Notes: generated by a model from the sequence alone, not told the origin. A stretch of 64,000 nucleotides of DNA from Candidatus Binataceae bacterium (GCA_030038355.1 JASHPB010000098.1:586-64585), one strand, 5' to 3'; positions 6,168 to 22,711 are shown, counted from the first letter of the stretch. Program-made: numbers and translations.

Positions 6168-6226
6168 AGAACAGCGCGCGCTCGATAATCGGCGTCGGCT
6201 AATTGTCACGCTTCCGCTCTGCAAGC

Positions 6227-7768
6227 ATGATGGTCGTCGGAGTGATGGAAGCGGAATCTTCATTCGCAGTCGCTACCGAGCCTGTCCTTAGCGAGCCGCT
6301 CGGGCATCATCAGCCGCACAAGTGGCTGGTGGCCGCCGCGGTCTTGCTCGGCGCTATCCTGACGCTGCTCGATGGCTCAATTGTGAATGTCGCGCTGCCC
6401 TACATGCAGCGCAGCTTCAGTGTCGGCGTCGAGCGGATCAGCTGGGTCGTTACCAGTTATCTGGCCGCGGTCAGCGTGATGATTCCGATGAGCGGATGGC
6501 TGGCGGTGCGGATTGGCCGGCGGCGTTACCTGCTAATTTCGGTCGTGACGTTTGTCGCATCTTCGGCGCTCTGCGGCATCGCACGAAACATCGGAGCGAT
6601 CGTGATCTTCCGGGTGATGCAGGGTCTGGCGGGCGCCGCGATGATGCCGCTTTCTCAGGCGATCATGCTCGAGACCTTCCCGGTCGAGGAGCATACGCTC
6701 GCGATGACGACGTTCGGCATGGGGATGATGGCCGCGCCGGTCATCGGTCCGACGCTTGGCGGATGGATAACTGAGACCTGGAGCTGGCGCTGGATTTTCT
6801 ACATCAATGTTCCCATCGGATTGTTCGCGGCGCTAATGGTGTACAGCTACGTACATGACCCATCTTATCTGCGCGAACAGCGCCGCAGCGGCCGGGTGGA
6901 TTACCTGGGCATCATTCTGATTGTGGCCGCACTTACGACCTTCCAGATCTTGCTCGGACGGGGCGGCAGTGACGGTTGGTTCGCGGCTCCGTGGGTCAGG
7001 TACACCGCCGTGGTCGCGATGCTCTCGGCGGTTGCGCTGATTGTTCATGAGCTGCGCTATCCGGAACCGATCGTCGATCTGCGCCTATTCGGCATCGTTA
7101 GCTTTTCGGTCGCGGTCGTGATGCTTTCGCTTCAAGGCCTTGCGCTCTGGACCATCAACCTGCTGAATCCTTTGTTCCTCGAAAACGTCCTGCATTACGA
7201 CGCGTGGCGCGCGGGCCTCGCGGTCGCACCGCGCGGACTCGGCGTGGTTATCGCGCTGTTTGTAGTCGGCCAGCTATCGCGCCGCCAGTTTGATATGCGT
7301 CCGATCGTCTGCGCGGGATTTCTGGTCGGCGCGTACCAGGCCTATCGGATGTCGCAGTGGACGATACAAACGCCCGAGGCCGAAATCCTGCTTCCGATAT
7401 TGCTGTTCGGGATCGGCCTCGGCGCGATTTTCCCGATTGTCACCGCGCTCGGTATTGGGCAGATCAATCGCGAACGGATCGGCTTCGCGTCGAGCCTGTT
7501 CTCGATGATGATCAACACCGGCGCGGCGGCCGGAATCGCGGTCGCGACCGATCTGCTTGCTGCTGGCCATCGACGCCACGAGGCGCAAATCCTGATGACG
7601 CTGTCATCGCCCACCCTTTACACCGGCATCCTAAAATCGCAGGCGTGGCTCTTTGCCTACAACGACGTGTACCAGGTGACGGCCATCGTGTTGCTGCTAC
7701 TATGCCCTTGGGCCTTCTTCCTCAGGCGAGCGCAGGTCGATACCAACGCGGCGGTTGGCTTCGATTGA
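6227..7768 (+). CDS. MFS transporter, DHA2 (EmrB/QacA) drug-efflux subfamily, 14 TM predicted
   Basis: About 513 aa with multiple hydrophobic segments. LDGSIVNVALPYMQ matches the DHA2 TM1 motif (LD.tIvnvAlP). The track ORF starts at TTG 6203 and the first ATG is at 6227. Confidence 0.85.
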   Translation: MMVVGVMEAESSFAVATEPVLSEPLGHHQPHKWLVAAAVLLGAILTLLDGSIVNVALPYMQRSFSVGVERISWVVTSYLAAVSVMIPMSGWLAVRIGRRRYLLISVVTFVASSALCGIARNIGAIVIFRVMQGLAGAAMMPLSQAIMLETFPVEEHTLAMTTFGMGMMAAPVIGPTLGGWITETWSWRWIFYINVPIGLFAALMVYSYVHDPSYLREQRRSGRVDYLGIILIVAALTTFQILLGRGGSDGWFAAPWVRYTAVVAMLSAVALIVHELRYPEPIVDLRLFGIVSFSVAVVMLSLQGLALWTINLLNPLFLENVLHYDAWRAGLAVAPRGLGVVIALFVVGQLSRRQFDMRPIVCAGFLVGAYQAYRMSQWTIQTPEAEILLPILLFGIGLGAIFPIVTALGIGQINRERIGFASSLFSMMINTGAAAGIAVATDLLAAGHRRHEAQILMTLSSPTLYTGILKSQAWLFAYNDVYQVTAIVLLLLCPWAFFLRRAQVDTNAAVGFD

Positions 7769-7780
7769 GATCGCTCCTAC

Positions 7781-7795
7781 ATCACGCGTCGTGAT
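7781..7795. terminator. Palindrome ATCACGCGTCGTGAT between convergent MFS and AKR genes (possible bidirectional terminator)
   Basis: Perfect inverted repeat ATCACG/CGTGAT with a 3-nt loop, sitting in the 30-nt gap between convergent genes. No strong T-tract. Confidence 0.3.
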
Positions 7796-7798
7796 TAA

Positions 7799-8752
7799 TC
7801 ACGGTAGACTGGCGGCAGAGAGAACATCAAGCTGTCGTTTACCGAGCTCCAATCGTCCGGCGTTGATAATCTCGTTCAGCTGCGCGACGTTTCTGACGCC
7901 AATGATCGGAGCGACAATACCAGCTTGAGCCAGCAGCCACGCAATGGCGACCTCAGCGTGTGTGGCATGCTGTTCCTCCGCGACCTCATCCAGCGCGGTG
8001 AGGATACGCAGCCCACGTTCGTTCAGGTAGCGCTGCTTCACCATTTCCTCCCACTTGCTCTCGGAATTGTCCGCGCCGGGCCGATATTTGCCAGTCAGAA
8101 ACCCCTTGGCCAACACGCTGTAACAGATCACTCCAACCTCGTTCTTGACACATACGTCCTGCACTTCGGTTTCGAAATCGGCGCGGTCACAAAGATTGTA
8201 GCGCGGCTGCAGACTGTCGTAGCGGCACACGCCGTTGTCGTTGCTGACCCTCAAAGCGTCCGACAGTCGCTGGGCATCGTAGTGGGACGCACCAATGGCG
8301 CGTACCTTGCCGGATTTGATCAACCGATCATAAGCCTTCAGGGTCTCGTCCAGCGGCGTTCGGGCATCATCCAGGTGCGACTGGTAAAGATCGACATAAT
8401 CGGTCTGTAGCCGCTTCAGCGATCCTTCAACCGCTTTGACGATGTATGATGCGGAGAGCCCCTCGCCCCAGTTGGGCATCGGCCCGCCGACCTTTGTTGC
8501 CACAACCACCCGCTCACGTCTGCCGCGCGCCTTCAGCCAGTCGCCAATGATCGTCTCGGATTCCCCACCCACATGACCGGGAACCCAGCAGGAATAAACG
8601 TCAGCCGTATCGATGGCGTTGTATCCGGCCGCCACAAAGGCGTCGAGTATGGCGAATGACGTCTTGTCATCCGCTGACCAACCAAAGGTATTCGTGCCGA
8701 GCACGAGAGGCGCTATTTTCAGTTCGGATCGACCAAGCTTGCGCTGTTGCAT
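7799..8752 (-). CDS. Aldo/keto reductase family oxidoreductase
   Basis: 317 aa. The N-terminus RKLGRSELKIAPLVLGTNTFGW and overall AKR (TIM-barrel) pattern match the family. Confidence 0.9.
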   Translation of the reverse strand: MQQRKLGRSELKIAPLVLGTNTFGWSADDKTSFAILDAFVAAGYNAIDTADVYSCWVPGHVGGESETIIGDWLKARGRRERVVVATKVGGPMPNWGEGLSASYIVKAVEGSLKRLQTDYVDLYQSHLDDARTPLDETLKAYDRLIKSGKVRAIGASHYDAQRLSDALRVSNDNGVCRYDSLQPRYNLCDRADFETEVQDVCVKNEVGVICYSVLAKGFLTGKYRPGADNSESKWEEMVKQRYLNERGLRILTALDEVAEEQHATHAEVAIAWLLAQAGIVAPIIGVRNVAQLNEIINAGRLELGKRQLDVLSAASLP

Positions 8753-8763
8753 ATGGCTGTCCT

Positions 8764-9109
8764 TTCATTGGCTAATCGAACTGTCCCACCCGGTGGCTGA
8801 ATTGCCGGCGGGGAACCGCCCGAACGAGCGCGCGGCCATCAGGCCGATGAGCAGAATGCCCCCACGGCGATGAACGTGGTCGACGGCGCGCAGATCGAAT
8901 CTTTCCACACGAACGATGAGAAGGTAGGCGACGACGAGGTACGCAAATCACCAGAGTACGTTCACGGTTGAGGACGAAAGACCTTTGCCAGGCGGCTTGG
9001 TGAACGGGCTCTGAAAGGGCCGTCCCATCATGCCGCGGACGAAATGCGGAACGGCGTTTACGAGAAACGCGCCGCCGAACAGACAAGCTGCGTCGTGAAG
9101 CCAATCCAT
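8764..9109 (-). pseudogene. Small membrane protein in the MarR operon with an in-frame TGA at 8948-8950 (or a 53-aa truncated product)
   Basis: ATG at 9109 lies 2 nt after the MarR stop. The reading frame is MDWLHDAACLFGGAFLVNAVPHFVRGMMGRPFQSPFTKPPGKGLSSSTVNVLW*FAYLVVAYLLIVRVERFDLRAVDHVHRRGGILLIGLMAARSF.. and continues in frame, with TM-like segments, down to a stop 12 nt before the AKR start. TGA>TGG would give LWWFAYLVV. Confidence 0.35.
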
Positions 9110-9111
9110 GC

Positions 9112-9579
9112 TCAGATCGCCTGGGAATCGCCTTCTCCCAGGCGCTTGATCAGGGCGACTGTCGACATCAGCGTTCGTTGCTCGGCGGGATCGAGCTTGG
9201 AGATCGCTGCCAACAGCCATTGCTGCTTCGCGGCACTGCGCTTCCGTCTCGCCGCGACGCCTTCGCGCGTCAGCGCGAACAAGACCTGGCGACCATCCGT
9301 CGGATGAGGGCGGCGCTCGACCAGAAACTCCCGCTCCAGTTCGGCGAGCGTTGCGCCCATCGACTGCGGCTTCACCGACTCCGCGCGCGCGAGATCCGCC
9401 GTCGTCATCGCTCCCACCCGCTCCAGGCGGGCCAACGCCGCAGTCTGCGACCAGGTGAGCCCGTCCGGGTTAGATTCGGCACGCAACCGCCGTAGGACCT
9501 GCCCGATCGCCAGCGACAGTTCAGTGACGAGCGTTTCGACCGCTATGGAACTGACTGGAGAAGCGCTCATGAGCGACAT
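9112..9579 (-). CDS. MarR family transcriptional regulator
   Basis: 155 aa. A winged-HTH segment (LTWSQTAALARLERVGAMTTADLARAESVKPQSMGATLAELEREFLVERRPHPTDGRQVLFALTREG) is typical of MarR. Confidence 0.85.
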   Translation of the reverse strand: MSLMSASPVSSIAVETLVTELSLAIGQVLRRLRAESNPDGLTWSQTAALARLERVGAMTTADLARAESVKPQSMGATLAELEREFLVERRPHPTDGRQVLFALTREGVAARRKRSAAKQQWLLAAISKLDPAEQRTLMSTVALIKRLGEGDSQAI

Positions 9580-10617
9580 ATATATATATGCAGGAAACCT
9601 TGCAAGTTTACCTGTTAATATTGGAACGTTACGCTGCCGACCATAGAGTTTAGGCCCGCTATGTGCTGCTACGCCTCTAATTGAGAATGCTGCAGTACGA
9701 TGATTGGCCAGGCGCCGGAACGATCTACGTGGGCATCAATGCCGCGCTGCTTGCCGTGTAGATACTGGCCTCGCGCGCCGTGTAGGGTGAGTGAGATTGT
9801 AGGACTTCCCGAACAGCCTCCGATGAGCCGAGTCGAGCGATTCGCGAACGTTCGCCCGTACTCTATGTGGCGGGAGCGAAACCCACTTTGCGATACGCCA
9901 CGGCGCCGCGCACAGAATTTGCCAGCGTCAGCATCATTAGGACACTCATTCCTGCCTCGAACAGAAATGTTTTGTGGGCCTTACGCAGCAGGCAAAGTCC
10001 GCTCTCGATACGCATGGCCAGATACAGGCCGAACGGTGCGGTCGCGGTAGCTCTGGAAATTTCGGAGATGCCCCGAGCAAGCGCAAGCCAGATGGCGCCC
10101 TGGATAAACGCCGACCGAAACTGAAAGGCGACCAGCGATGCAGGAACCGACTCGGGCCACGCGAAGTGGGGAAACGGCCACTCGTGAAGCGCGCCGGTAT
10201 TCCGTATTGGGCCGCGCGCCAAGCCGATTCCACATTCGCGATCCGCGGCCAGAGCAGCACCGGCAGCAGCGCCACGACCCGGTCGGCTGGTCGCAGTACG
10301 GAATGGCCGCGCGATCCAAACTGCAGAAATTTAAGCGCAAACCAGAAGGCTCTAAGCAGCTCGTGAAGCATAGAAAAGAACTCCCGGCTCATCGTGCCCT
10401 CTAAAGCCTTAAATAGAAAAAATCTCTCAAAGTCACGTCCACTTCATTCAGTGGAAGCATATCTCCTAATCCAAAAATGTGCGTTGGATAGGTGAGAGGC
10501 AATCGATGTGCCAGTCGATTCAGGGCACGACTACTATTGGCCAAGGGTGGCTTCCGGTTGCACAGCATTCGCAAACTGTGCTCTTTGCCTTCGTAGACCG
10601 AAGGAGAGGTACACGCC

Positions 10618-11655
10618 ATGAAAGCAATGGTGATGGAAGAAATCGGCAAGCCAATGCAGATCAAGGATTGGCCCGAGCCGAAGGTGCCCGCCGACGGCGC
10701 AGTCGTTCGCGTCGAAGCGAGCGGCATCTGCCGTTCGGACTGGCATCTGTGGCAGGGCGACTGGGCATGGATCGGTTTCAAACCGCGGCTGCCAACCATC
10801 CTCGGGCATGAGTTCGCCGGCGTGATCGAAGAGGTCGGCAAGGATGTGAAATCGCTCAAGTCGGGAATGCGCGTCGTGGTGCCTCTCGTTCAGGGATGCG
10901 GCGTGTGTGATGATTGCCGCACCGGCCATTCGAACCATTGCTCGCGCAGCCCGGGCATGGGCGGCTACGCGCGCTATGGCCTGCTTCGCTTTGCCGATTT
11001 CAACTGCGTGCCGCTGTCCGACAATATCGACTTCGTCGAGGCTTCCTCGATGGGATGCCGCTATGTCACCGCGTTCCACGGAATCCTCGATCAGGGGCAC
11101 GTCCAGGCCGACGAGAATGTCGTCGTGTACGGCTGCGGCGGTGTCGGGTTGTCGGCAATCCAGATCGCGACCGCCCTCGGCGCACGCGTCATCGCGGTTG
11201 ATCTGGATGATCGTAAACTGGAGCTCGCAAAGAACGCGGGCGCGGCCGATGTCATCAACGGCAAGAAGACCGATCCTGTCCAAGCGGTGCGGGATCTGAC
11301 CCACGGAGGCGCCGATGTCAGTATCGATGCCCTGGGAATCGCCGTCACCTGTCGCAATGCGGTCGCCAGCTTGCGCCGGCGCGGCCGTCACGTGCAGATC
11401 GGCCTTACCACGCACGACGAGAAGGGCGAGGTTCCGCTGCCAATTGATCAGATTGTGTTCCGCGAGATCCAGTTCATCGGCTCGCTCGCGATTCAGACGT
11501 TCCGCTACCCGGCGATCCTGAGCATGGTCGAGCGCAGGCGTCTCGAACCAAAAAAACTCATCAGCGAGATGATCCCACTGGAGAGGGCGTTCAGCGTCAT
11601 CGAGCAGATGTCGAACTACGAAAACGCGGGCATCAGTGTGATCAACCAGTTCTAG
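10618..11655 (+). CDS. Zinc-dependent alcohol dehydrogenase (MDR superfamily)
   Basis: 345 aa. Catalytic Zn motif GICRSDWH, structural Zn Cys cluster CGVCDDCRTGHSNHC, NAD motif GCGGVGLSA. RBS GAAGGAGAGG upstream. Confidence 0.9.
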   Translation: MKAMVMEEIGKPMQIKDWPEPKVPADGAVVRVEASGICRSDWHLWQGDWAWIGFKPRLPTILGHEFAGVIEEVGKDVKSLKSGMRVVVPLVQGCGVCDDCRTGHSNHCSRSPGMGGYARYGLLRFADFNCVPLSDNIDFVEASSMGCRYVTAFHGILDQGHVQADENVVVYGCGGVGLSAIQIATALGARVIAVDLDDRKLELAKNAGAADVINGKKTDPVQAVRDLTHGGADVSIDALGIAVTCRNAVASLRRRGRHVQIGLTTHDEKGEVPLPIDQIVFREIQFIGSLAIQTFRYPAILSMVERRRLEPKKLISEMIPLERAFSVIEQMSNYENAGISVINQF

Positions 11656-11799
11656 TCGATTCACCTGGAGAGAAGTCGGAATTACTGCGAATCGCACGGA
11701 CAGTTTCGTGATCACGAGCGACTTTCAAATTGAAGATCCACCTGCTATCGAACGAGAATCGTCTGCGATTAATGCTTCGCAGCAAGGAGGCATTCGTCG

Positions 11800-12552
11800 A
11801 TGGATCGGTTGAAAGGTAAAGTGGCGTTAATCTCTGGCGGCGCACGCGGGCAAGGCGCAGCTGAGGCGCGGTTGTTCGTCGCTGAAGGTGCGAACGTGGT
11901 CGTCGGCGACGTGCTCGACGATCAGGCCGCGTCGCTGGCCAAGGAGATCAATGCGAAAGGGCCACGTTCTGTGGTCGCTATTCACCTCGATGTTACCCGG
12001 GGCGCCGATTGGCGTAACGCGGTCGCCACCTGCGAGCGCGAGTTCAGCGGACTCGACGTCCTCGTCAACAACGCCGGCATCTTCAATACCGCTGGCCTCG
12101 AGGACACCAGCGAGGAGCTGTGGGAGGCCATCGTCAACATCAACCAGAAGGGAGTGTGGCTTGGGATGAAAGAGGCAGTCGCCGCGATGCGCAAGCGCGG
12201 CAGCGGAGCAATCATCAATATCTCGTCGGTTGCCGGCCTGACCGGTTCGACGGGATCAACGGCATATCATGGGAGCAAAGGCGCGGTGCGGTTGCTGACC
12301 AAAGCCGCAGCCGTGCAATACGGACCGGATCGCATCCGCGTCAACTCGGTGCATCCCGGCCTCATCAACACGACTATGATCGATATCATTCCCAAGGAAC
12401 AGCGCGATCACATCGTCAAGACCGTGGTGCCGCTCAGACGCGAGGGGACCCCCGAGGACGTTGCGAAGCTGGTGCTGTTCCTCGCCAGCGACGACTCATC
12501 TTACTGCACTGGCGCCGAGTTCGTGGTCGACGGCGGCTTGACGGCGCAGTGA
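11800..12552 (+). CDS. SDR family oxidoreductase, 3alpha(or 20beta)-hydroxysteroid dehydrogenase-like
   Basis: 250 aa. TGxxxGxG (ISGGARGQG), NNAG, catalytic YxxxK (YHGSKGAV). Its overall string resembles the Streptomyces 3alpha/20beta-HSD (..LVNNAGI....RVNSVHPG...SSYVTGAE..VDGG), as recalled from memory. RBS GCAAGGAGG. Confidence 0.85.
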   Translation: MDRLKGKVALISGGARGQGAAEARLFVAEGANVVVGDVLDDQAASLAKEINAKGPRSVVAIHLDVTRGADWRNAVATCEREFSGLDVLVNNAGIFNTAGLEDTSEELWEAIVNINQKGVWLGMKEAVAAMRKRGSGAIINISSVAGLTGSTGSTAYHGSKGAVRLLTKAAAVQYGPDRIRVNSVHPGLINTTMIDIIPKEQRDHIVKTVVPLRREGTPEDVAKLVLFLASDDSSYCTGAEFVVDGGLTAQ

Positions 12553-12747
12553 AGGAGGGCATTTGAACATTCGACGCTTATGAGCCAGCAAGCGGTTCCA
12601 CGAAAGAGTTCGCGAGTCATTTGATTCTCGATTGTGCGGCTCACGACAAGCTTCGCTCGAATCTTCCCTCCGGAAGCAGTCAATCGTGAAGCGCATGAAA
12701 TGCTCGTGGCAAAGATACCAGCTCGCTGATTCTGCCCACCTGGTGGA

Positions 12748-13956
12748 CTATTGAAGAACTTCTGAAGCTACCAATTCGGTGATGCGCGCTTCGTCATAGT
12801 GCAAGATATTCTGAAGTACATACTGATTGTCGCGGCCGACGCTAGGTGCCTGCCGCGGAATTCGCGCAGGAGTGCGGGACAATTTGAAACGCGATGCTTC
12901 AACCACGGTTTTCCCCTGGATGTTGTGATCGATTTCGACCAGGTATCCTCGGCTCGCTAACTGCTTGTCCTCACAGACTTCTTTACTGTCCTGAACCACA
13001 GACGCCGGCACGCCTGCGCTTTGTAGCAATTTCTCGGCCTTTTCAGCTTCAATTCCTCTGCTCCACACTTGGATGATATCGTCCAATTGCATGCGATTCC
13101 TGAGACGACTCGATGCCGTTGAAAAGCTCTCATTGGTCGCGAGATCAGTCCTCTTCATTACGACGCATAGGCGCCGCCACTGTTCATCATTCAAACAGGC
13201 AATAGCTATCCAGCGGTCTTCTCCGGCTGCCGCATAGACCCCATGCGGCGCGCAGTTAAGATCGTCATTTCCCAGGGCCTGGAGCACTCGCCCGTTAACA
13301 GCACAGTCGAGTAAGGCTGGAGTGAGGAAATGCAGAGCAGATTCGGCCTGCGACTGATCGATATACTGTCCCTTGCCTGTGCGCTTTCGATAATCCAGTG
13401 CAGCTAGAATAGAAACTGCACCGAAACGCGGTGCCAGGTAATCGGTATAAGCTCCGAATGGTCCCGAGGGAGACCTGTCAGGCCAACCGCAAAGATTATA
13501 GAACCCCGAGACAGCTGCCGCCATGTTGCCAAACCCGACAAAGCCTGACATCGGACCCGTTTGGCCCATCAAACAAGAACTGAGCATTATGATGTCGGGT
13601 TTGAGCGCACGCAGAGATTCATAATCAAGCTTCCATGAACGCATGGCCTTGGGTGAAAATGATTCGCAGACTACGTCGGCCCATCGTACGAGATCCAACA
13701 CTACTTCCCTTGCCTCAGGCTTATTCAAGTCGAGACCGAGTCCAAGCTTACCGGCATTATAGGTGCCAAACAGACCCGATCCATCGTGAGCAGCTTTGTT
13801 CTTATAAAAAGGCCCGACGGTGCGGGATCCGTCTATTCTGGTGGTGGATTCAATTCGAACGACCGTTGCACCGTAGTCAGCCAGCGCTCTGGTTGTGCCG
13901 GGGCCGGCTAGTGCCCACATGAAATCCAGGATTTTGATATCTTCGAGGGGCAACAT
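12748..13956 (-). CDS. Family III CoA-transferase (CaiB/BaiF), downstream member of a tandem pair
   Basis: 402 aa. LEDIKILDFMWALAGPGTTRALADYGATVVRIE signature. Its start overlaps the stop of the upstream paralog (ATGA at 13956). Confidence 0.9.
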   Translation of the reverse strand: MLPLEDIKILDFMWALAGPGTTRALADYGATVVRIESTTRIDGSRTVGPFYKNKAAHDGSGLFGTYNAGKLGLGLDLNKPEAREVVLDLVRWADVVCESFSPKAMRSWKLDYESLRALKPDIIMLSSCLMGQTGPMSGFVGFGNMAAAVSGFYNLCGWPDRSPSGPFGAYTDYLAPRFGAVSILAALDYRKRTGKGQYIDQSQAESALHFLTPALLDCAVNGRVLQALGNDDLNCAPHGVYAAAGEDRWIAIACLNDEQWRRLCVVMKRTDLATNESFSTASSRLRNRMQLDDIIQVWSRGIEAEKAEKLLQSAGVPASVVQDSKEVCEDKQLASRGYLVEIDHNIQGKTVVEASRFKLSRTPARIPRQAPSVGRDNQYVLQNILHYDEARITELVASEVLQ

Positions 13957-15197
13957 CAGATTATTCCTCTTCGCGTCAGGTCTTGAATCTCGCTCTCTGA
14001 AAGCCCCAGCTCCTCACAATAGATTTCGCGGTTATGTTCACCTACTAGCGGCGGACGACGGTGATAAACGATCGGCACCTCACTGAACTTCGCGAACGGA
14101 CCCGGATAAGAGAATGTTCGCGCCAACTCGGGATGTTCGAGCGCTTGCCAGTAATGTCGAGCTTTGAGTTGAGGACTCGAGAGCACGTCACTAACTGTTG
14201 CGATCGGCGCAATCAATAGGCCCCGCTCGAGCGCGTCAGCGAACAGGTCGGCCTTGGTTCGAGTCGAAACAAAGTCGGCGATGATTGCAACGATTCTTGT
14301 GTATTCCTGCATCGGCTCTTGGCCGCCCGCGAGCAGAGAGCCATATTCGATCCAGTCTTTATCTCGAGTAGCGGCGTCACAAGCCTCCTGCTCGTACAGG
14401 TAGGTCATGAGACGTTTAGTAAAGACTCCAAGTTGCCGACCGAAGAGGAAGAGGAGCGTGACGTAGCCGTCCTTCGCGCGCCACACCAGCGGCACGCGCA
14501 TGGATCCCACTCGCACGCCTCCCGCCATTCGCCGCGCCTCATCGGCGTCCAGACGAAAGGCGAGATTGTTGGCCTGCGTCGCCGGAGTTACCGATTGTTG
14601 CGCTGACACATCGACCTGCTGCCCCATGCCCGAGCGCTGCCGTTCATGATTTGCCACGAGCGCACCTACCGCCGCATCACCGCAAGCGTGGAGATACGCT
14701 TGCGCAATACTGACCCTGATCGGTGCCCGGTCCTCATCTCCACAGAGCAATAGCGGACCGCCTGCAGCGAGGATTACGAGGTCGCTGTCCGCGTAGGATG
14801 CTTTCGGTCCAGCCTGACCGAACGGAGTTATCGATACGTAAATGATTTCACGATTGTGAGTAGCAACATCCTCGTATCCAAGCTCACGATCACTTAGATA
14901 TCCTGGATCATAGGACTCAATCAGGAACTGCGCCCTCGCGGCGAGTCGATAAAGCAAAGCTCGCCCATCATCAGTTTCGATATCGAGAGTGATGCTTCGT
15001 TTGTTGCGGTTGTAGGACCACCAGTAGATCGAACGATCGCGATCAGGTCGATCCTCAAAAAAGGGCGCGAGTTGGCGTGCCGGCGACCCTCCCGGTGGTT
15101 CAATCTTGATAACGTCGGCACCCAGATCCGCCAGAATCTGTCCGCAAAGTAGCCCCCTCTCGGTTGTGAGATCGAGCACTCGATACCGACTCAGCAT
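13956..15197 (-). CDS. Family III CoA-transferase (CaiB/BaiF), upstream member of a tandem pair
   Basis: The internal start ATG 15197 (MLSRYRVLDLTTERGLLCGQILADLGADVIKIE) is preceded by GAGGAGAAGG at about 9-nt spacing. The track ORF start 15224 is rejected because no SD precedes it. Confidence 0.85.
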   Translation of the reverse strand: MLSRYRVLDLTTERGLLCGQILADLGADVIKIEPPGGSPARQLAPFFEDRPDRDRSIYWWSYNRNKRSITLDIETDDGRALLYRLAARAQFLIESYDPGYLSDRELGYEDVATHNREIIYVSITPFGQAGPKASYADSDLVILAAGGPLLLCGDEDRAPIRVSIAQAYLHACGDAAVGALVANHERQRSGMGQQVDVSAQQSVTPATQANNLAFRLDADEARRMAGGVRVGSMRVPLVWRAKDGYVTLLFLFGRQLGVFTKRLMTYLYEQEACDAATRDKDWIEYGSLLAGGQEPMQEYTRIVAIIADFVSTRTKADLFADALERGLLIAPIATVSDVLSSPQLKARHYWQALEHPELARTFSYPGPFAKFSEVPIVYHRRPPLVGEHNREIYCEELGLSESEIQDLTRRGII

Positions 15198-15270
15198 AGC
15201 CGCCTTCTCCTCGCCCTCGAACAACTCGCTTTTCGCAGAACGCTAGATGAATGTCGATCGCGGTCGCCGG

Positions 15271-16512
15271 CTATCGCGACTTTCGTACGGCCGTTTTGGA
15301 GCGCTTCACCTTGCCTTTCGCGGAGGCGGCCTTATGCGCCAGCGTTCGAGACGTCTTGCGCCACAATTCGCGCGAGGCAATCCGTGCGCCGTCTGCCATC
15401 GCTCGGAGCTTGGCCCAAGTAATTTTAGGATCGACGGCGACAAACCCCGCAAAAGTGGAGAAGCCGCAATCACTGCCGGCAATGACGTTCTCGCGGCCGA
15501 TGATCCTTGCGAATCGCACAATCCGTTCCGCTACCAGCTCCGGATGCTCGATGAAATTGCACGACGAGTCGAGTACCCCCGGAATCAATACCTTTTCGCC
15601 GAGCTTCACACCCTGCCAAACGGCAGACTCGTGAGCGTGGCGCGGGTTCGACGCTTCAAAAGAGATCGCCCCGACTTTGGCCTTTAGCACCGTATTCACT
15701 ACGTCCTTGAGCGGGATATCGCGATGGTGCGGACCTTCGTAATTGCCCCAGCATAGATGGAGCCGAACCGAAGCGGTTGGAATGTCAGCCAGGGCATGAT
15801 TGAGAGCCTCAATATGAAGCTCGGCCTTTTTGCGAAAATCCGCGACCGAAAGATCGTCGAATTGGATGTGCCGCCCCATCGCCAGATCGGGGCAATCGAC
15901 CTGCAATAGCAAGCCGGCGCGATGGATCATGTCGTATTCGACTTTCATCGCGTCCGCCAATGCGCCCAGATACTTCTCGTGGCTTCCGTAGTGATGGTCG
16001 GGCAGGAATAGTGATATGACGCCCGGCGATGCGGCACTCATAAAAACTTCTTCGACCTTCACGCCATTGGTCGCCTCCTTCAGATTTGCAATATCAACTT
16101 CAACATCACGCGTGTCGCGGTACGAGATCGTCCCGTTGCACGCGGGAGTCTTTAGGATGGACCTGGTGGAGGGAAACAATCGCGCTGCATACTCGGGAAA
16201 ATCCTTCAGGTCGCCGAGGCTGAGCGCGCCGCCTTCTCCCAGTCCGGCACTTTCGCCGCCAAAGCCGGTCATTCGATCTTTGATGTAGTTCGAGTAACCA
16301 GGCTTGCTCATCTCGCCGTCATTGACCACATCGACGCCGGCACCGACCTGCTTACGAACGATGTCGCTGACCGCTGACCGGATGCTCGATGCTAAAGCCA
16401 CGGAATCGTATGGCTCTCCGGCTTCCTTTGCCACCATCATCGCCAGCAGATCGTCGGGACGCGGCAGACTACCTGTGTGGGTCGTAAGGATTCGTCGAGT
16501 GCTGCGCTTCAT
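15271..16512 (-). CDS. Cobalamin-independent methionine synthase (MetE) C-terminal-domain-like protein (Meth_synt_2 / UroD-MetE fold)
   Basis: 413 aa. ILTTHTGSLPRP (GSfPRp), VNDGEM (dGE), LHLCWGNYEGPHH (H.C.Gn, Zn-binding) are hallmarks of PF01717. RBS GGAGGTG at 7 nt. The substrate is unknown. Confidence 0.75.
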   Translation of the reverse strand: MKRSTRRILTTHTGSLPRPDDLLAMMVAKEAGEPYDSVALASSIRSAVSDIVRKQVGAGVDVVNDGEMSKPGYSNYIKDRMTGFGGESAGLGEGGALSLGDLKDFPEYAARLFPSTRSILKTPACNGTISYRDTRDVEVDIANLKEATNGVKVEEVFMSAASPGVISLFLPDHHYGSHEKYLGALADAMKVEYDMIHRAGLLLQVDCPDLAMGRHIQFDDLSVADFRKKAELHIEALNHALADIPTASVRLHLCWGNYEGPHHRDIPLKDVVNTVLKAKVGAISFEASNPRHAHESAVWQGVKLGEKVLIPGVLDSSCNFIEHPELVAERIVRFARIIGRENVIAGSDCGFSTFAGFVAVDPKITWAKLRAMADGARIASRELWRKTSRTLAHKAASAKGKVKRSKTAVRKSR

Positions 16513-16897
16513 GCCGGTTCACCTCCAGGGCCGGAGGTTGCCACCTCCGAACGGAAACCCCAAAAGTCCATGTCTTGAAATAAAAGATTCAGCGCGCGAT
16601 CTCAACTATCTCGCCCGACGTTTCTGGCGCAGGATGAATGGGTACTAATCCGTTACGGATTTATCTTCGATGTAAAGATCTGCCCGCCTACCTACAGCGA
16701 AGTAAATATCGAAAAGAATCAACAGCGCGCGTCGCATTTGCGGAATGCACGACAAGCTCTCTTCTGCCAGACTAGTCGCAATATCCTGGAGTAGCGAAGG
16801 CTACTCTCGACTTTTCGCGTATCGGTCGCTTCATGCGAGCCCCGTAAACGAGTGTTCGACGCCGATACAGCCTCTTTGGCGTTTCAATCTGCGATCG
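16513..16897 (-). promoter_or_regulatory. 385-nt 5' leader of the MetE-like/CoA-transferase operon ending in alternative SD-sequestering hairpins (riboswitch-like expression platform)
   Basis: The mRNA 3' end of the leader reads GGAGGUGgcaACCUCCggcccUGGAGGUGaaccggcAUG. The middle ACCUCC can pair either with the upstream GGAGGU or with the SD GGAGGU. No SAM-I or B12-box consensus was seen. Confidence 0.4.
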
Positions 16898-17818
16898 CTA
16901 CGCGAATGCCAAATCGGCAAGCCAGTCGCGGAATTGATCGATCCAGCGGTCCGACGGTATTCCCTGCTTCGCCATGCCGAAGCCGTGGTTGCCACGCCGG
17001 TAGATGTGCAGTTCAGCTGACCGTCCGGCGTCGGTCCAGTCGGAATATAGCCCCTCGGTTACGCGATAGAGCAAGACATCATCCTGGGCGATGCAGGTGA
17101 ACAGCGGCGGCGCATCTTTAGGTAGGGGCCTTCCCAGCGTTTCGCCGCCGTAAATCGCCGCCACAAACGCGGGCGGCGGTGCCGTGCGTGGATCAACAGC
17201 GACATCGACCACGAGAAACGCGCCGGCCGAGAATCCAATCATCCCAACTTTGGCCGAATCCAGGTCCCATTCCTTGGCCCGCTCGCGCACAATTGCGAGT
17301 GCGCGACGGCCGTCATCGGCGGCGGCTGCACGCGCGTCGCTGAAAAATTTGGCTGGCACGATGTCGCTCATGGCACGGAAGGCGGTTTTTCCCTTGCGGG
17401 TCGAATCGATCAGCGCGGCCATTTGTGCCATCTCGGCGTCATAGTCGGCCTGCGCCACGGGCGTGCCGCGCACGCGGTATTTCAGCAGGAAAGCCGTATA
17501 GCCATGCGCTGCGAGCCAGTGCGCGACATCGAGCCCTTCGTGCTCCCATGCGAGTATGCGCCAGCCACCACCAGGGCACACGATGACGGCGGTGCCGTTC
17601 GGCTTGCCGTTCGGTGGTCTATACACGGTAAGCGTCGGGTTGGACACATTGCGAAGCATCAGCGCGTCGCCCACGGTACCGACCGGCCCGCGGTACTCTA
17701 CCTCAGGACCCACTCCATTCAGCGTTGTTGGCGGTCCATCGGGCCAGAGGGGAATAATGCCGCCGGGCTGGAATGTCACGGCGGTCTCGCTAATTTGGAA
17801 ATTCCTCTCGTAACTCAT
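16898..17818 (-). CDS. Alpha/beta hydrolase (esterase/lipase, HSL-like family)
   Basis: 306 aa. Oxyanion-hole motif VIVCPGGGW (HGGG-like), nucleophile elbow GFSAGA (GxSxG), and a C-terminal His region. Confidence 0.85.
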   Translation of the reverse strand: MSYERNFQISETAVTFQPGGIIPLWPDGPPTTLNGVGPEVEYRGPVGTVGDALMLRNVSNPTLTVYRPPNGKPNGTAVIVCPGGGWRILAWEHEGLDVAHWLAAHGYTAFLLKYRVRGTPVAQADYDAEMAQMAALIDSTRKGKTAFRAMSDIVPAKFFSDARAAAADDGRRALAIVRERAKEWDLDSAKVGMIGFSAGAFLVVDVAVDPRTAPPPAFVAAIYGGETLGRPLPKDAPPLFTCIAQDDVLLYRVTEGLYSDWTDAGRSAELHIYRRGNHGFGMAKQGIPSDRWIDQFRDWLADLAFA

Positions 17819-18021
17819 TTTCTGTCAGAATCTCTCGATCGCTTCTCTCGCTTCTCTTGCCTTCAACGGTTAGGCTTTCTCTGATCGCCTACTGTACAGT
17901 CATCTGCCGCAGCGCGGCAAAAGAAAAACTAGCACGAGTCTCGTGCGAACCCGCTTGTATCGCTTGCAGGAGGCTGGAATAGTCGGCCTCAATCCCCTTC
18001 GACGCTCGCGAGGTAACCCGC

Positions 18022-18990
18022 ATGAAAGCTGTTGTCTTCGATAAGCTGGGTGGGCCCGAGGTGCTGCGTCTCGCAGACATCCCCAAGCCCGAAGTGAAGC
18101 CGGGCACGGTTGTGATCCGAGTTCGCGCCGCCGGGATCAATTTTGCCGATACTCTGTTTCGCCAGGGACAGTACCTGATTCAGCCGCAACTGCCCGACGT
18201 TCCCGGTGTCGAGGGCGCCGGCGAGATCGAGGCGGCCGGCGCAGGAGTATCGAACCTGAAGCCCGGGCAGCGCGTCGCATTCATCGGCAACAAGGCGTAC
18301 GCAGAGTTCGCGCTCGCGCCCGCAGCGCAGGTGATTCCGCTTCCCGACTCGATGTCGTTCGAGCATGGCGCGGCGTTTCCGATCCAGGTGCTTACCGCAT
18401 GGCACATGCTGCACACCTGCCATAACACCGCACCCGGACAGACCGTGCTCGTGCATTCAGCGGCAGGCGGTGTGGGTATCGTCGCAGTGCAGATCGCAAA
18501 AGCGGCGGGCGCGAAGGTGATCGGCACCGTCTCCAGCGATTCGAAGGCGGCGCTCGTCAAGGAGTATGGCGGCGACGACGTGATCAACTATGCGACCAAG
18601 GATTTTGCCGAGGAAGCGAATCGTCTTACGGGCGGACGCGGTGTCGATCTGATACTCGACGCTGTTGGTGCGACAACGCTTGAGAAGGGTATCGGATGTC
18701 TGGCGCCGTTCGGCCATACGATTCTTTACGGGCGCGCCGGCGGACCTCCCGAGCCGCTGAACCTCTTCCAACTGTTCCCGAGATCAGCGATGGCGAGTGC
18801 CTTCACTCTCAATACGGTGGCGACCTTGCCCGATTTGATGCGGCGCGGAATCGAGGAAGCGCTGCGCCTCGTCATGCATGGAAAGGTGAAGCTGATAATC
18901 GGTAAATCATACCCGCTGGCGGAGGCTGCCGACGCGCATCGCTTCATGGAATCGCGCCAGTCGACCGGCAAGCTAGTCCTCAACGCCTGA
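18022..18990 (+). CDS. NADPH:quinone oxidoreductase-like zinc-binding dehydrogenase (MDR, Qor family)
   Basis: 322 aa. MKAVVFDKLGGPEVL start, GAGEIEAAG and AAGGVG motifs. It lacks the catalytic Zn Cys/His, as is usual for Qor. Confidence 0.85.
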   Translation: MKAVVFDKLGGPEVLRLADIPKPEVKPGTVVIRVRAAGINFADTLFRQGQYLIQPQLPDVPGVEGAGEIEAAGAGVSNLKPGQRVAFIGNKAYAEFALAPAAQVIPLPDSMSFEHGAAFPIQVLTAWHMLHTCHNTAPGQTVLVHSAAGGVGIVAVQIAKAAGAKVIGTVSSDSKAALVKEYGGDDVINYATKDFAEEANRLTGGRGVDLILDAVGATTLEKGIGCLAPFGHTILYGRAGGPPEPLNLFQLFPRSAMASAFTLNTVATLPDLMRRGIEEALRLVMHGKVKLIIGKSYPLAEAADAHRFMESRQSTGKLVLNA

Positions 18991-19001
18991 CGAATGCTCG
19001 A

Positions 19002-19042
19002 TGCCCACTGCACAACTTCCGCGGTGGGCGTCATTTTGCTTT
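19002..19042 (+). terminator. Rho-independent terminator candidate after the Qor gene
   Basis: GCCCAC..(loop)..GTGGGC stem followed by GTCATTTTGCTTT. Confidence 0.4.
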
Positions 19043-19049
19043 AGCTCGG

Positions 19050-19517
19050 GTGACCTCCCGCAATCTTATCGGTGTAGTTTCGGACACCCACGGCCTGATC
19101 CGGCCGGAGGCGGTACAGGCGCTGCGGGACTCGAGCCTGATCATTCATTGTGGCGACATCGGTGACCCTTCGGTTCTGCGGACCCTCCGCAGTATCGCCC
19201 CGCTACGCGCGATCCGCGGCAACAATGACCACGGGGCATGGGCTGATCGTCTTCCTGAGCACGACTTTGTCAGATTCGGTTCTCAAGTGATCTATGTACT
19301 TCACAACCTTGCTGAACTTGAACTCGATTTGCAAGCAAGAGGTGTAACCGTAGTCCTAAGCGGTCATTCACATAAGCCAGTCGTCGAAAGGCGGGACGGG
19401 GTTCTGTTTCTGAATCCGGGCAGTGCGGGACCGCGCCGATTCAAACTGCCAGTGACAGTGGCGACGCTTGCCGAGCGGTCTGGTCATTGGATGCCGACGA
19501 TTGTGCGACTGGCCTGA
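19050..19517 (+). CDS. Metallophosphoesterase, YfcE/MJ0936 family phosphodiesterase
   Basis: 155 aa. GVVSDTHG, CGDIGD, GNND, GHSH (SGHSHKP) metal-binding motifs in the canonical order. GTG start. Confidence 0.85.
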   Translation: MTSRNLIGVVSDTHGLIRPEAVQALRDSSLIIHCGDIGDPSVLRTLRSIAPLRAIRGNNDHGAWADRLPEHDFVRFGSQVIYVLHNLAELELDLQARGVTVVLSGHSHKPVVERRDGVLFLNPGSAGPRRFKLPVTVATLAERSGHWMPTIVRLA

Positions 19518-19573
19518 ACTTCGTCGCGAAAGTTGAAATATGTCCGCGCCGATCGTTCGCAGGTGCTCTGCAA

Positions 19574-20413
19574 CTAAGGTTGGCCGAGCTTCCGGTTCAG
19601 TTCATCGATGCGCAGTTCGCCCTCGCGGGTTTGTCCACCGATCTTTAGAAACGTCTCCATGTTGCGGCGGCCGCTCTGCGTACGGATAAGCTGCTGGAAG
19701 AGATAGCCTTCGTCGCACAATCCCTCGGCCAGCGGCCTCGTTGCTGAATTGATCGCCTGCTTGGCGAGCTTCACTGCCTCGACTGGAAAGGATGCGATGC
19801 GTGTGGCGAGGTTCATCACGTATGGGCCGATTTCTTTCGCATCCAAAGCGCGGTTCAGATAGCCCCATCGCTCGGCTTCGTCGGCGGAAATGTCAACGCC
19901 GGCCAGTATAATCTCGATAGCGCGGTTACGTCCGATCAACCTCGGCAGCTTCTGCGTGCCAGTTCCTCCGGGGAGAATGCCGAGCGGCACCTCCATCTGA
20001 TTGATTTTCGTCTTTCCGAGCACACCAAAGCGCATATCGAAGCCCATCGAGAACTCGCTGCCTCCGCCCCCGACACGCCCCTCAATCTGAGCGATAGTCA
20101 CTTTGTCCATCGTAGTCATTCGGTTGCACATGTCGTGATACTCGTTGCTGGCCGACGCTTCCCGCGTTGCCGGCTGGTCGATAGGGAATCGGAGGATTGC
20201 GCTTACGTCGAAGTGCGCCAGAAAGAATTCGGGGTTCGCGCTCTTCACAATAAAGACCACACAATCCTCATCCGCCTCGACCTCTCGCGACATGCGGCTG
20301 AGTTCGGAGTAGAGCTCGAGTGTTATGAGGTTGATTGGCGGAGCATCTACCGTAGCCGTGACGATCTTGCCGTCACGAGCGAATCTGATCAGTTTGTATC
20401 CGTCGTAAGCCAT
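19574..20413 (-). CDS. Enoyl-CoA hydratase/isomerase (crotonase) family protein
   Basis: 279 aa. Crotonase-fold oxyanion region (IAQIEGRVGGGGSEFSMGFDMRF) and the pattern of a hydrophobic helix followed by a GG motif. Confidence 0.85.
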   Translation of the reverse strand: MAYDGYKLIRFARDGKIVTATVDAPPINLITLELYSELSRMSREVEADEDCVVFIVKSANPEFFLAHFDVSAILRFPIDQPATREASASNEYHDMCNRMTTMDKVTIAQIEGRVGGGGSEFSMGFDMRFGVLGKTKINQMEVPLGILPGGTGTQKLPRLIGRNRAIEIILAGVDISADEAERWGYLNRALDAKEIGPYVMNLATRIASFPVEAVKLAKQAINSATRPLAEGLCDEGYLFQQLIRTQSGRRNMETFLKIGGQTREGELRIDELNRKLGQP

Positions 20414-20626
20414 AATCCCTTCCTTGTAGTTGACGCCTTACTCCAAAAGCTCGTAGAGGTTCAATGGCCAGTATAGTTCCGCGATATTGCCGGGCGCGAA
20501 TAGCACTGCTCATCGCAAAATTCCAGCCGCCGCAGGTTGAGCGTATCAACCCAACGGTGCAATAAGATCGATCGAGCGGCGCACGCCCTGCCCGAACGAA
20601 CGCCGCGCAAAGTTGGGGAGGTTCAG

Positions 20627-21847
20627 ATGAATCAGGATCCCTACATTTTGATCACGGCCGATACTCATGCGGGTGGAAGCCATGCCCAGTACCGCGAATA
20701 CCTCGATCCGAACTGGCGCGAGGCATTCGATGAATGGCGCGGCGGCTACAAGAACCCGTCGCAGGAGCACTACGGCTCCAAGAAGATGCGCAACTGGGAT
20801 TACGGTATCCGCAACAAGGACCAGGACAGCCAAGGCGTCGTCGGGGAGGTCGTGTTCCCCAACACCGTGCCGCCTTTTTATCGCAAGAGTATCGTGACGG
20901 CGCATCCCCCGAAGCCCGAGGATTTTGAGCGCTGCCTCGCCGGAATACGCGCGCACAATCGATGGCTGAAAGATTTCTGCGCCGAGGATCCCATGCGGCG
21001 CGCCGGCATCGGACTGATCCTGCCGAACGACTTTGACGAGGCGATCAAGGACATCGAGTTCATCGCCAATGCGGGGCTCCGCGGCGGCGTGCTGCTGCCG
21101 CTGATCCCACCCGACGCATACTGGCTGAAGCCGCTTTATGATTGCGCATGGGACCGCGTGTTCGCCGCGATCGAGGATCACGGCCTCGTCATGAATCAGC
21201 ATACCGGCCAAGGACTGCCGAACTATGGTGAGGGCGTCGTGCCCGAATCGATTTGGATACAGGATGTCGCTTACTACGGTCAGGCCGGCTATCGGCATCT
21301 GCTGATGGCCGGCGTCTACGAGAAATTTCCGAAGATCAAGCACATCCTCACCGAGTCAGGATGTTACTGGGTCCCGGCGATTCTCAAGCAGATGGACCGC
21401 GCCTACTACGCCATCAAAGCTGGCGCGCTCGGCGAGATGAATTACAAAGGGTTGGAGATGCCGCTCAAGGAGCCGCCGAGCGAGTACGCGAAGCGCAACT
21501 GCTATTACGGCGCCAGCTTTCCAAGCAAGGCTGACCTCGCGGGAATCGAAGAGATAGGCGAAGATCACGTGCTGTGGGGCAACGACTATCCGCACTACGA
21601 GGGCACCTTTCCCTACACTCTCCAGTCCTTGAGGTTGACGTTCGGCGACATGCCCGATTCACGGCGACGCAAGGTGCTCGGGCTCAACGCGGCAAAGCTC
21701 TACAACTTCGACCTCGAGAAGCTGCGCCCCCGTGCGGCTCAGATCGGACCGACTCCGGCGCAGGTCGAGACTCCCCTGCCGCGCGAGGAGATTCCCCGCG
21801 ACACGGCGTGCTATCTCTTCCGCGACGCGCTCCAGGAGGCTTCCTGA
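20627..21847 (+). CDS. Amidohydrolase-2 family (PF04909; ACMSD/LigJ-like metal-dependent hydrolase/decarboxylase)
   Basis: Start ATG 20627 with RBS GGGGAGG 6 nt upstream. ITADTHAG (HxH-like N-terminal metal site), GNDYPHYEG, and a C-terminal D. About 406 aa. Confidence 0.8.
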   Translation: MNQDPYILITADTHAGGSHAQYREYLDPNWREAFDEWRGGYKNPSQEHYGSKKMRNWDYGIRNKDQDSQGVVGEVVFPNTVPPFYRKSIVTAHPPKPEDFERCLAGIRAHNRWLKDFCAEDPMRRAGIGLILPNDFDEAIKDIEFIANAGLRGGVLLPLIPPDAYWLKPLYDCAWDRVFAAIEDHGLVMNQHTGQGLPNYGEGVVPESIWIQDVAYYGQAGYRHLLMAGVYEKFPKIKHILTESGCYWVPAILKQMDRAYYAIKAGALGEMNYKGLEMPLKEPPSEYAKRNCYYGASFPSKADLAGIEEIGEDHVLWGNDYPHYEGTFPYTLQSLRLTFGDMPDSRRRKVLGLNAAKLYNFDLEKLRPRAAQIGPTPAQVETPLPREEIPRDTACYLFRDALQEAS

Positions 21848-21850
21848 GCC

Positions 21851-22711
21851 ATGCCGATGCCCTCGAACATCGGGATCATAGATACGATGATCGGCTTCCC
21901 CGCCGAAGACTTCAAAATGTACGACTTCATCCGGGCGCAGCTCAAAGACCCGTCGGCGAAGTTCGATTTTCCGGTTGAGTACATGTTCAAGAATGTGCCC
22001 AAGGAGCTGTACGGAACCAAGGATCCCATCGCGGTCACGGTGCACGAGATGGATCGCTTCGGCATCGAGTTGGGAGTTATCGGCGTGGGCGGTGAGGTTT
22101 CGAACAGGGCGCTGAAGGATTATCCTGATAGGTTCATTCCGATTGGCCACGTCGATCCGAATCGCGGCATGGAAGGAATCCGCGAGATGGTACGACAGCA
22201 CGAGAAATACGGCGTGCGCGCCTTCGCCTCGTTCAACGCGGGATTCAATCCTCAGGTTGGGATCTCGGACGCGCTGATGTATCCGATCTACGCGAAGTGC
22301 GTTGAACTCGGCGTCCCGATTTTTTCATGCGCGGGCGTTCCGGGGCCGCGCTTTCCGATGTGGCCGCAGGAAGTCCGGCTTATCGACCAGGTGATGTACG
22401 ATTTTCCAGAACTCATTTTCGTGACGAGGCACGGATGCGAGCCGTGGGAGGACCTCGCCGTCAAGCTGATGCTGAAGTGGCCAAATCTTTACTATTCGAC
22501 CTCGGCCTTCGCGCCGAAGTATTACCCTGACGCGATCGTCAAGTACGCCAATACCCGCGGCGCCGACCGCGTTATCTATGGCGGCTACTTTCCAATGGGT
22601 CTCTCGCTCGAGCGGATCATGACCGACATGAAGTCCGTGCCGTTCCACGATAATGTCTGGCCGAAGTTCCTGCGCGACAACGCGCGCAAGGTGCTCAAGC
22701 TCAGCGCATGA
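21851..22711 (+). CDS. Amidohydrolase-2 family protein (second, shorter paralog-type)
   Basis: 286 aa. IGIIDTMIGFP N-terminal, HV..D, GGYFPMG. Starts 4 nt after the upstream gene. Confidence 0.8.
   Translation: MPMPSNIGIIDTMIGFPAEDFKMYDFIRAQLKDPSAKFDFPVEYMFKNVPKELYGTKDPIAVTVHEMDRFGIELGVIGVGGEVSNRALKDYPDRFIPIGHVDPNRGMEGIREMVRQHEKYGVRAFASFNAGFNPQVGISDALMYPIYAKCVELGVPIFSCAGVPGPRFPMWPQEVRLIDQVMYDFPELIFVTRHGCEPWEDLAVKLMLKWPNLYYSTSAFAPKYYPDAIVKYANTRGADRVIYGGYFPMGLSLERIMTDMKSVPFHDNVWPKFLRDNARKVLKLSA

Follow-up and report, generated by a model that had tools for sequence, protein, structure and literature searches.

Three neighbouring minus-strand genes in a 64-kb stretch of Candidatus Binataceae bacterium, referred to here as the window, raise the question of whether they form one regulated unit with a common function. 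The first encodes a MetE-like protein (15271..16512, 413 aa; Pfam Meth_synt_2, 41.7 bits), and the two that follow encode family III CoA-transferases, namely CoAT1 (13956..15197, 413 aa) and CoAT2 (12748..13956, 402 aa). The first-pass annotation had described them as an operon behind a riboswitch-like untranslated leader. Open reading frame (ORF) analysis bore out the positions of the three genes, the ATGA overlap of CoAT1 and CoAT2, which share base 13956, and a 385-nt gap upstream of the MetE-like gene (16513..16897, minus strand), the last being the intergenic spacer to an esterase-like gene. In comparisons with metagenome and genome loci (labelled L###), however, the locus probably resolves into a conserved two-gene BbsEF-type CoA-transferase module, an unrelated MetE-like neighbour, and an ordinary intergenic gap with hairpins private to this organism.

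The riboswitch proposal concerned the sequence adjacent to the MetE-like start codon. Here, the motif GGAGGT-GGCA-ACCTCC-GGCCCT-GGAGGT (16521..16548, minus strand) allows two mutually exclusive hairpins, the second of which masks the Shine-Dalgarno (SD) sequence. In detail, the upstream GGAGGT lies at 16548-16543, the central ACCTCC at 16538-16533, the SD GGAGGTG at 16526-16520 and the ATG at 16512-16510, all on the minus strand. The motif is thus as had been described, except that the spacer between the SD and the ATG is 7 nt (AACCGGC) and not 8. Taken alone, the two hairpins had energies of -13.3 and -10.0 kcal/mol; the most stable folds with one or the other reached -20.7 vs. -19.1 kcal/mol, which is near-bistable, so that pairing of the central ACCTCC with either the upstream GGAGGT or the SD is physically plausible. 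The triple motif occurred once in the 64-kb window and in none of 100 dinucleotide shuffles, hence it is not a random feature. A new aptamer class that uses the alternative hairpins as an expression platform for the MetE-like gene and the operon would account for a motif that is real and unique, and for mutually exclusive hairpins that lie about 2 kcal/mol apart or less. Riboswitch control is common among true metE genes, and in translational riboswitch platforms such as SAM-II, SAM-SAH and cobalamin the anti-SD likewise pairs with the SD or with an upstream copy at near-equal energies.

The likeness to translational riboswitches does not extend further, as the window leader has no aptamer, no Rfam match, no conservation and no covariation, and the relatives lack the upstream arm. 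The Rfam 15 scan, which had been proposed as a check, gave 0 matches over the whole window at the gathering score and 0 in 16400-17000 even at E<=10; neither was any riboswitch found before the family members in six close and 11 proteobacterial loci, 17 in all. The minimum free energy of the 398-nt leader was -130.9 vs. -129.3 kcal/mol in dinucleotide shuffles (z -0.27), its 3′ ends (56 and 69 nt) folded at z -0.38 to -1.1, and the 70-nt upstream regions of five relatives folded within about 1.2 standard deviations of shuffles, so the leader is no better structured than shuffled sequence. Accessibility of the SD was not reduced either, being 0.30 vs. 0.38 +/- 0.16 when the upstream part was shuffled and the SD kept. 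Neither blastn nor tblastx, run with the leader on the window and on all loci, detected a hidden coding remnant or a repeat, and a short-repeat search in the leader returned two weak inverted repeats only.

Close relatives gave the same answer. The same gene trio was found in only two other contigs, L083 (MetE-like 88% and CoAT1 86% identical to the window) and L136 (87% and 83%, respectively). Because the four-fold degenerate sites of both are still 61-64% identical to the window, orthologous neutral DNA should remain alignable at this distance. The comparative alignment of orthologous leaders that had been suggested could nevertheless not be extended beyond about -50: the leader aligned with L136 over only ~48 nt beside the ATG and with L083 over ~15 nt, and farther upstream it is not homologous. 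The gap between the upstream gene and the ATG is 96 nt in L136 and 35 nt in L084, a locus in which an 88% identical MetE-like gene stands in a different gene context, and such upstream sequences are too short for an aptamer. L083 and L136 keep the SD but not the triple motif, and GAGGTGAAC is the sole upstream block invariant across the window, L136, L083 and L084. Among 138 loci, the triple motif was present only in L081 and L082, which are the same organism as the window (99.4-99.7% identity), and was absent from the 136 others. The upstream hairpin (helix P1) was intact in the window only and broken in L136, L083 and L084, with 56% of cells paired; the SD-masking helix (P2) had 75% of cells paired and no meaningful covariation. 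Lack of covariation and non-conserved hairpins were the very signs that the first-pass annotation had named as speaking against its proposal, and since both were found, the riboswitch reading was rejected. The empty scan, the fold, the lack of conservation and the gap lengths of the relatives all argue against it, and we regard a new riboswitch class at this locus as very improbable.

The hairpins could instead be a ligand-independent, lineage-private tuner, either a thermosensor-like or kinetic mask of the SD or an mRNA-stabilising 5′ stem-loop, and the near-isoenergetic folds, one of them masking the SD, would suit such a function. SD-complementary segments are also present in relatives, namely GTTCACCT/AGGTGAAC in L136 and ACCUC far upstream in L083, and the 4-bp CUCC:GGAG anti-SD core of P2 was retained in three of the four close sequences. 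However, shared ancestry explains the 4-bp core because only four related sequences were compared, and compensatory changes were not found. In none of nine leaders was the SD paired more strongly than with shuffled upstream regions (threshold p<0.05), and the hairpin may lie outside the mRNA. A tuner of this kind is thus unlikely. The GGAGGT/ACCTCC/GGAGGT hairpins are a feature private to this organism; at most, they could tune ribosome access, and not act as a ligand-sensing switch.

The 385-nt gap is therefore best described as ordinary, non-conserved intergenic DNA that probably contains a promoter. Where upstream blocks are conserved in other clades, they are promoter-like hexamers within 30-60 nt of the ATG of the MetE-like family gene. 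In Methylomirabilota/Rokubacteria (L014, L015, L027, L032 and L042), the block is GTAAGATGCCGCCC-GGAGG, with TAAGAT ~30 nt before the ATG, and in betaproteobacteria (L041, L045, L046, L058 and L074) a CTTGACA-N16-GAGGAT block occurs ~35-65 nt before it. By their sequence, these clade-specific blocks look like promoters near the start codon. A sigma-70 and terminator consensus scan of 12000-18500 in the window gave no promoter-like site and no terminator in the cluster interior; a TTGAGA-N17-TATTTC read by hand ~70-100 nt upstream of the MetE-like ATG is our guess for a promoter. A sigma-54 reading of TGGCAA-N5-GGCC in the hairpin was dismissed, as its spacing is one off and the SD is too near. 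At the far end of the gap, a 14-nt imperfect inverted repeat (16870-16918; 79% complementary, 21-nt loop) spans the stop codon of the esterase-like gene; it is not followed by a T-run and is therefore not a canonical terminator.

If the leader does not bind the trio together, the question remains whether the MetE-like gene belongs with the CoA-transferase pair at all. It was within 4 kb of the pair in none of about 31 other pair loci, and the pair was found beside a MetE-like family gene in 0 of 80 genome loci and in none of L084-L088, L137 and L138. About 90 MetE-like family loci are without the pair, L084 among them. In L089, the pair is 86-88% identical to that of the window, and the gene upstream encodes a 1244-aa beta-helix protein, with no MetE-like gene. 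The three genes thus adjoin in three contigs only (at least 87% identity), and the case for the unit proposed in the first-pass annotation is weak; the adjacency is missing from the equally close L089 pair and from the L084 MetE-like gene. Since pair loci and MetE-like loci elsewhere lack each other, the adjacency is young and confined to one lineage.

The pair, moreover, carries a conserved 5′ region of its own. A 62-nt non-coding element before CoAT1 (15198..15259, minus strand), which takes in the GAGGAG SD of CoAT1, had a mean column identity of 81% in the window, L083 (7255-7316), L136 (1729-1790) and L089 (3939-4000), compared with 58-64% at four-fold degenerate sites, and the homology of L089 to the window begins exactly at this element. 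Its conservation in four loci shows that, at this distance, non-coding sequence with a function can still be recognised. A 7-bp helix, UCGUCUC/GAGACGA, can be drawn over the CoAT1 SD in L083 and L136; it has one mismatch in L089 and is degraded in the window, and no covariation was seen among the four loci. The start of CoAT1 itself was set at the ATG by homologue alignment and the GAGGAG SD, the mechanical ORF running on to a TTG at 15224.

A functional link among the three proteins can be imagined. A thiol-bearing organic acid would gain or lose an alkyl or methyl group at its thiol through the MetE-like Zn enzyme and would afterwards be activated by the CoA-transferase, as for example in the catabolism of an S-methylated or thio-substituted acid. 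Such a pathway would be consistent with the retention of the trio across three contigs, each with a different upstream flank, with the short gap lacking a terminator, and with the tandem MetE-like paralogues in L006, L019, L029 and L049, which hint at substrate diversification and not at a single housekeeping role. It is at odds with the absence of the adjacency from about 31 other pair loci and about 90 MetE-like loci, with the equally diverged relatives L084 and L089 that lack it, and with the separate conserved 5′ region of the pair. We therefore consider a shared pathway improbable. Judged from these gene neighbourhoods, the MetE-like gene is an unrelated neighbour of the pair, and a shared pathway is not indicated.

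Several observations weigh against reading the locus as a conserved pair with an unrelated neighbour and an ordinary gap. Apart from the non-random triple motif, its near-bistable folds and the retained CUCC:GGAG core, the upstream neighbour differs in each of the trio contigs, and keeping the trio despite differing flanks could reflect selection that holds it together. Co-transcription of the trio is plausible because the MetE-like gene and CoAT1 are separated by 73 nt with no terminator-like site between them. Finally, both the CoAT1/CoAT2 heteromer and the inactivity of CoAT1 are inferred.

The pair itself could be assigned to a type. Both proteins matched Pfam CoA_transf_3 (PF02515; cut-off 23.3 bits) essentially over its full length, CoAT1 scoring 241 bits (positions 2-366 of the 366 in the profile) and CoAT2 338 bits (positions 1-366), whereas no NCBIfam equivalog cut-off was reached by any of the three genes. 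The best match of CoAT1 was 9fn0_A (221 bits, 37% identity, vs. 93 bits for 9fn0_B), and that of CoAT2 was 9fn0_B (253 bits, 38% identity, vs. 79 bits for 9fn0_A). These are the two chains of BbsEF, the succinyl-CoA:(R)-benzylsuccinate CoA-transferase (PDB 9FN0), which likewise consists of two paralogous CoA_transf_3 chains from adjacent genes, and each window protein matches a different chain over its full length. CoAT1 and CoAT2 are 23-25% identical to each other; since each is 37-38% identical to its matching chain and the two only ~25% identical between themselves, their duplication predates the split from Bbs.

The association of the two genes is also retained at large distances. In a metagenome scan with CoAT1 as the query, which returned 47 loci, a CoAT1-type gene was directly followed by a CoAT2-type gene, in the same order, in about 31, and the identities of the two to the window proteins drop in step across loci (86/88, 71/70, 65/62 ... 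43/42%). Down to 59% identity, the stop codon of the CoAT1-type gene and the start codon of the CoAT2-type gene overlap, as TGATG or GTGA, in 18 of 18 loci. Ten loci at a greater distance have both halves in one uninterrupted ORF of 793-823 aa, joined by a linker of 20-30 residues (L107 4001-6424, L108 4001-6433, L109 1763-4183, L110 4001-6466, L111 83-2515, L113 4001-6460, L114 1759-4218, L115 117-2531, L117 1129-3507 and L120 4001-6469), and such fusions are indirect support for a physical association of the CoAT1-type and CoAT2-type halves. The resemblance to two-subunit BbsEF-type enzymes that the first-pass annotation had noticed is therefore well founded, with subunit-specific matches to 9FN0, conserved adjacency, start/stop coupling and fusions in its favour. 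By sequence, CoAT1 and CoAT2 are the subunits of a BbsE/BbsF-type two-subunit family III CoA-transferase, which would form a heteromer (alpha2beta2 for the BbsEF type).

The gene context is, by contrast, not that of BbsEF. Neither a thiolase nor a glycyl-radical enzyme was present among the window genes scanned, and the bss/bbs context, with its glycyl-radical synthase, thiolase and other genes, is absent; of a bbs-like beta-oxidation operon, which would comprise an acyl-CoA dehydrogenase, a hydratase, a pair of short-chain dehydrogenases/reductases (SDRs) and a thiolase along with a fumarate-adding glycyl-radical enzyme, the window does have an SDR (11800-12552) and an enoyl-CoA hydratase (19574-20413). 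The window proteins are also only 37-38% identical to the 9FN0 chains, single-chain fusions replace the pair at greater distances, and the host is an uncultured soil-type bacterium in which the neighbours are an esterase, an SDR, a Zn-dependent alcohol dehydrogenase, an enoyl-CoA hydratase and an amidohydrolase. Elsewhere, the pair has an SDR as a neighbour in 8 loci, an acyl-CoA dehydrogenase in 5 and a further CoA_transf_3 gene in 4, which fits CoA-dependent acid catabolism. SDR was tried as a conserved partner of the pair and rejected: it recurs, but the window SDR is only 30-34% identical to those beside the pair elsewhere and is not orthologous to them.

The two chains differ in the catalytic residue. 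The catalytic aspartate of family III (Asp169 of formyl-CoA transferase) has its counterpart in Asp172 of CoAT2, which aligns with the 'TD' Asp of 10uh_A, 4ed9 and SUGCT, and an Asp occupies this position in all 28 of the 28 CoAT2-type homologues. In CoAT1, Tyr168 aligns with the catalytic Asp of 10uh_A and 4ed9. Asp was found at this position in none of 26 CoAT1-type homologues, which carry Tyr (16), Trp (5), Phe (4) or Val (1), and 9fn0_A also has Tyr there in the same alignment, so that in BbsEF and in the window pair alike the catalytic Asp is confined to the chain-B type. A MAFFT alignment that placed His170 of CoAT1 at the catalytic Asp was set aside for the ungapped HMMER alignment with solved structures, which gave Tyr168; there is no Asp in the catalytic position of CoAT1 under either. 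An acidic residue (Asp/Glu) six positions after Tyr168, Asp174 in the window, is kept in all CoAT1-type sequences. These alignments suggest that each heteromer combines a catalytic chain with a non-catalytic one.

The MetE-like protein is single-domain and lacks the N-terminal folate-binding domain. Its AlphaFold2 model (predicted template-modelling score 0.81) had as top Foldseek matches MesD (3RPD; template-modelling score, TM, 0.78) and the C-domain of Thermotoga maritima MetE (TM 0.67), and it thus shares the fold of MesA-MesD and the MetE catalytic domain. The Zn ligands H252, C254, E286 and C349, in the arrangement His-x-Cys, Glu and Cys, are at least 98% conserved in 118 homologues. The same holds for the homocysteine-site residues S15 (GSLPRP), E67 (DGE) and D206 (QVD), which align with motifs of 3RPD. 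The roles of these zinc and homocysteine-site residues are taken from Price et al. (2021; PMC7857596), where the homocysteine-binding residues of E. coli MetE are S433, E484 and D599. The protein was considered as one of MesA-D and rejected, as it scored only 29 bits (20% identity) with 3RPD, and the NCBIfam methionine-synthase models were far under their cut-offs, with NF003317 the best at 92 bits vs. 406 and the others at 41-49 vs. 258-576. Like MesA-MesD, it is without a folate-binding domain; unlike them, it has no MesX/DUF1852 or corrinoid-protein neighbour, is longer (384-413 aa) and has a Lys/Arg-rich tail and extra invariant His/Cys. Sequence and model together assign the gene product to an uncharacterised family of Zn-dependent homocysteine-methyltransferase-like proteins of the core kind, with the C-terminal domain only.

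This family is large and widespread. A search gave 8000 scored matches, all of them significant, for which the sources give generic names only, and members at 56-77% identity were found in Binataceae, Rokubacteria/Methylomirabilota, Chloroflexota, Dormibacterota and Proteobacteria. No recurrent neighbour was detected among 61 same-strand neighbours of members. Further residues invariant in the family are H12, H215, H262, H263, H292, H294, H323, C125 and C207. The Lys/Arg-rich tail (residues ~385-413, predicted local distance difference test score <50) belongs to the clade of the window protein and is absent from homologues of 377-384 aa. Tandem paralogues, 56-62% identical to the query, lie in L006 (4802-7143), L019 (4757-7143), L029 (1-2287) and L049 (4794-7164), and are a hint of substrate diversification in the family. 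In the alphaproteobacterial loci L040 and L057, a tRNA gene stands just after the MetE-like gene on the opposite strand (7162-7233 and 7203-7274, respectively), and an mmgR small RNA (RF00519) lies ~1.6 kb beyond the tRNA, also on the opposite strand (8723-8799 and 8841-8921).

A bolder combination joins these elements: the MetE-like protein would represent a fifth core Zn/homocysteine-type alkyltransferase family, recruited in this one lineage beside the BbsEF-type CoA-transferase, with private SD-masking hairpins tuning its translation and a sulfur-containing or methylated organic acid as the substrate. Taken jointly, this is improbable. Were it true, the absence of a folate domain, MesX or a corrinoid partner would point to a new methyl donor or thiol substrate, in a family whose members, numbering thousands, come from soil Binatia, Rokubacteria/Methylomirabilota and Proteobacteria.

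For the preferred reading, a conserved BbsEF-type pair next to an unrelated gene, the following course of events can be proposed. A promoter would lie somewhere inside the 385-nt gap, and the MetE-like gene would be translated from its strong GGAGGTG SD, perhaps damped by the private hairpins. CoAT1 would be translated from its own GAGGAG and CoAT2 by translational coupling, and the start-stop overlap would yield roughly equal amounts of the two chains. The chains would assemble as an interlocked heteromer with Asp172 of CoAT2 as the sole catalytic aspartate, which, by family III chemistry, would form acyl-anhydride and CoA-thioester intermediates, while the CoAT1-type chain, aromatic at the catalytic position, may have a structural or substrate-shaping role. 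A substituted organic acid is the probable substrate, activated as its CoA ester for a beta-oxidation-like breakdown, and succinyl-CoA may serve as the CoA donor, as it does for BbsEF. The MetE-like gene would have settled upstream of the pair in one narrow lineage only, where the trio may be co-transcribed.

The surroundings in the window are summarised for completeness. The next gene upstream, at 16898..17818, encodes a dienelactone-hydrolase/esterase-like alpha/beta hydrolase. The genes of 6203-22711 resemble a catabolic neighbourhood, with an MFS transporter, an aldo/keto reductase, a MarR regulator, an SDR, a Zn-dependent dehydrogenase, a metallophosphoesterase, an enoyl-CoA hydratase and two Amidohydro_2 proteins. 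The G+C content is mostly 0.49-0.58 over the three genes and the leader (12600-16900) vs. 0.60-0.67 in the flanking genes, a dip that is compatible with recent acquisition or rearrangement of the block. At 10534-11715, a 393-aa minus-strand ORF without a Pfam match overlaps a 345-aa plus-strand ORF (10618-11655). One public gene call takes the minus strand here; the 49% match of the minus-strand ORF in L084 is antisense to a gene called Zn-alcohol dehydrogenase, and the plus-strand ORF is therefore probably the real gene.

These results remove a false riboswitch lead and assign the transferase genes to the BbsEF-type heteromer, an architecture already known, in which one chain is catalytic and the other predicted to be non-catalytic. 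With them, this architecture would reach beyond anaerobic toluene degraders and take in uncultured soil bacteria as well as single-chain fusions. Two points may be of some use to specialists, namely that the first subunit type has lost the catalytic Asp throughout its family, and that there is a very large, highly conserved family of stand-alone MetE-like proteins that has its active site intact and no conserved partner.

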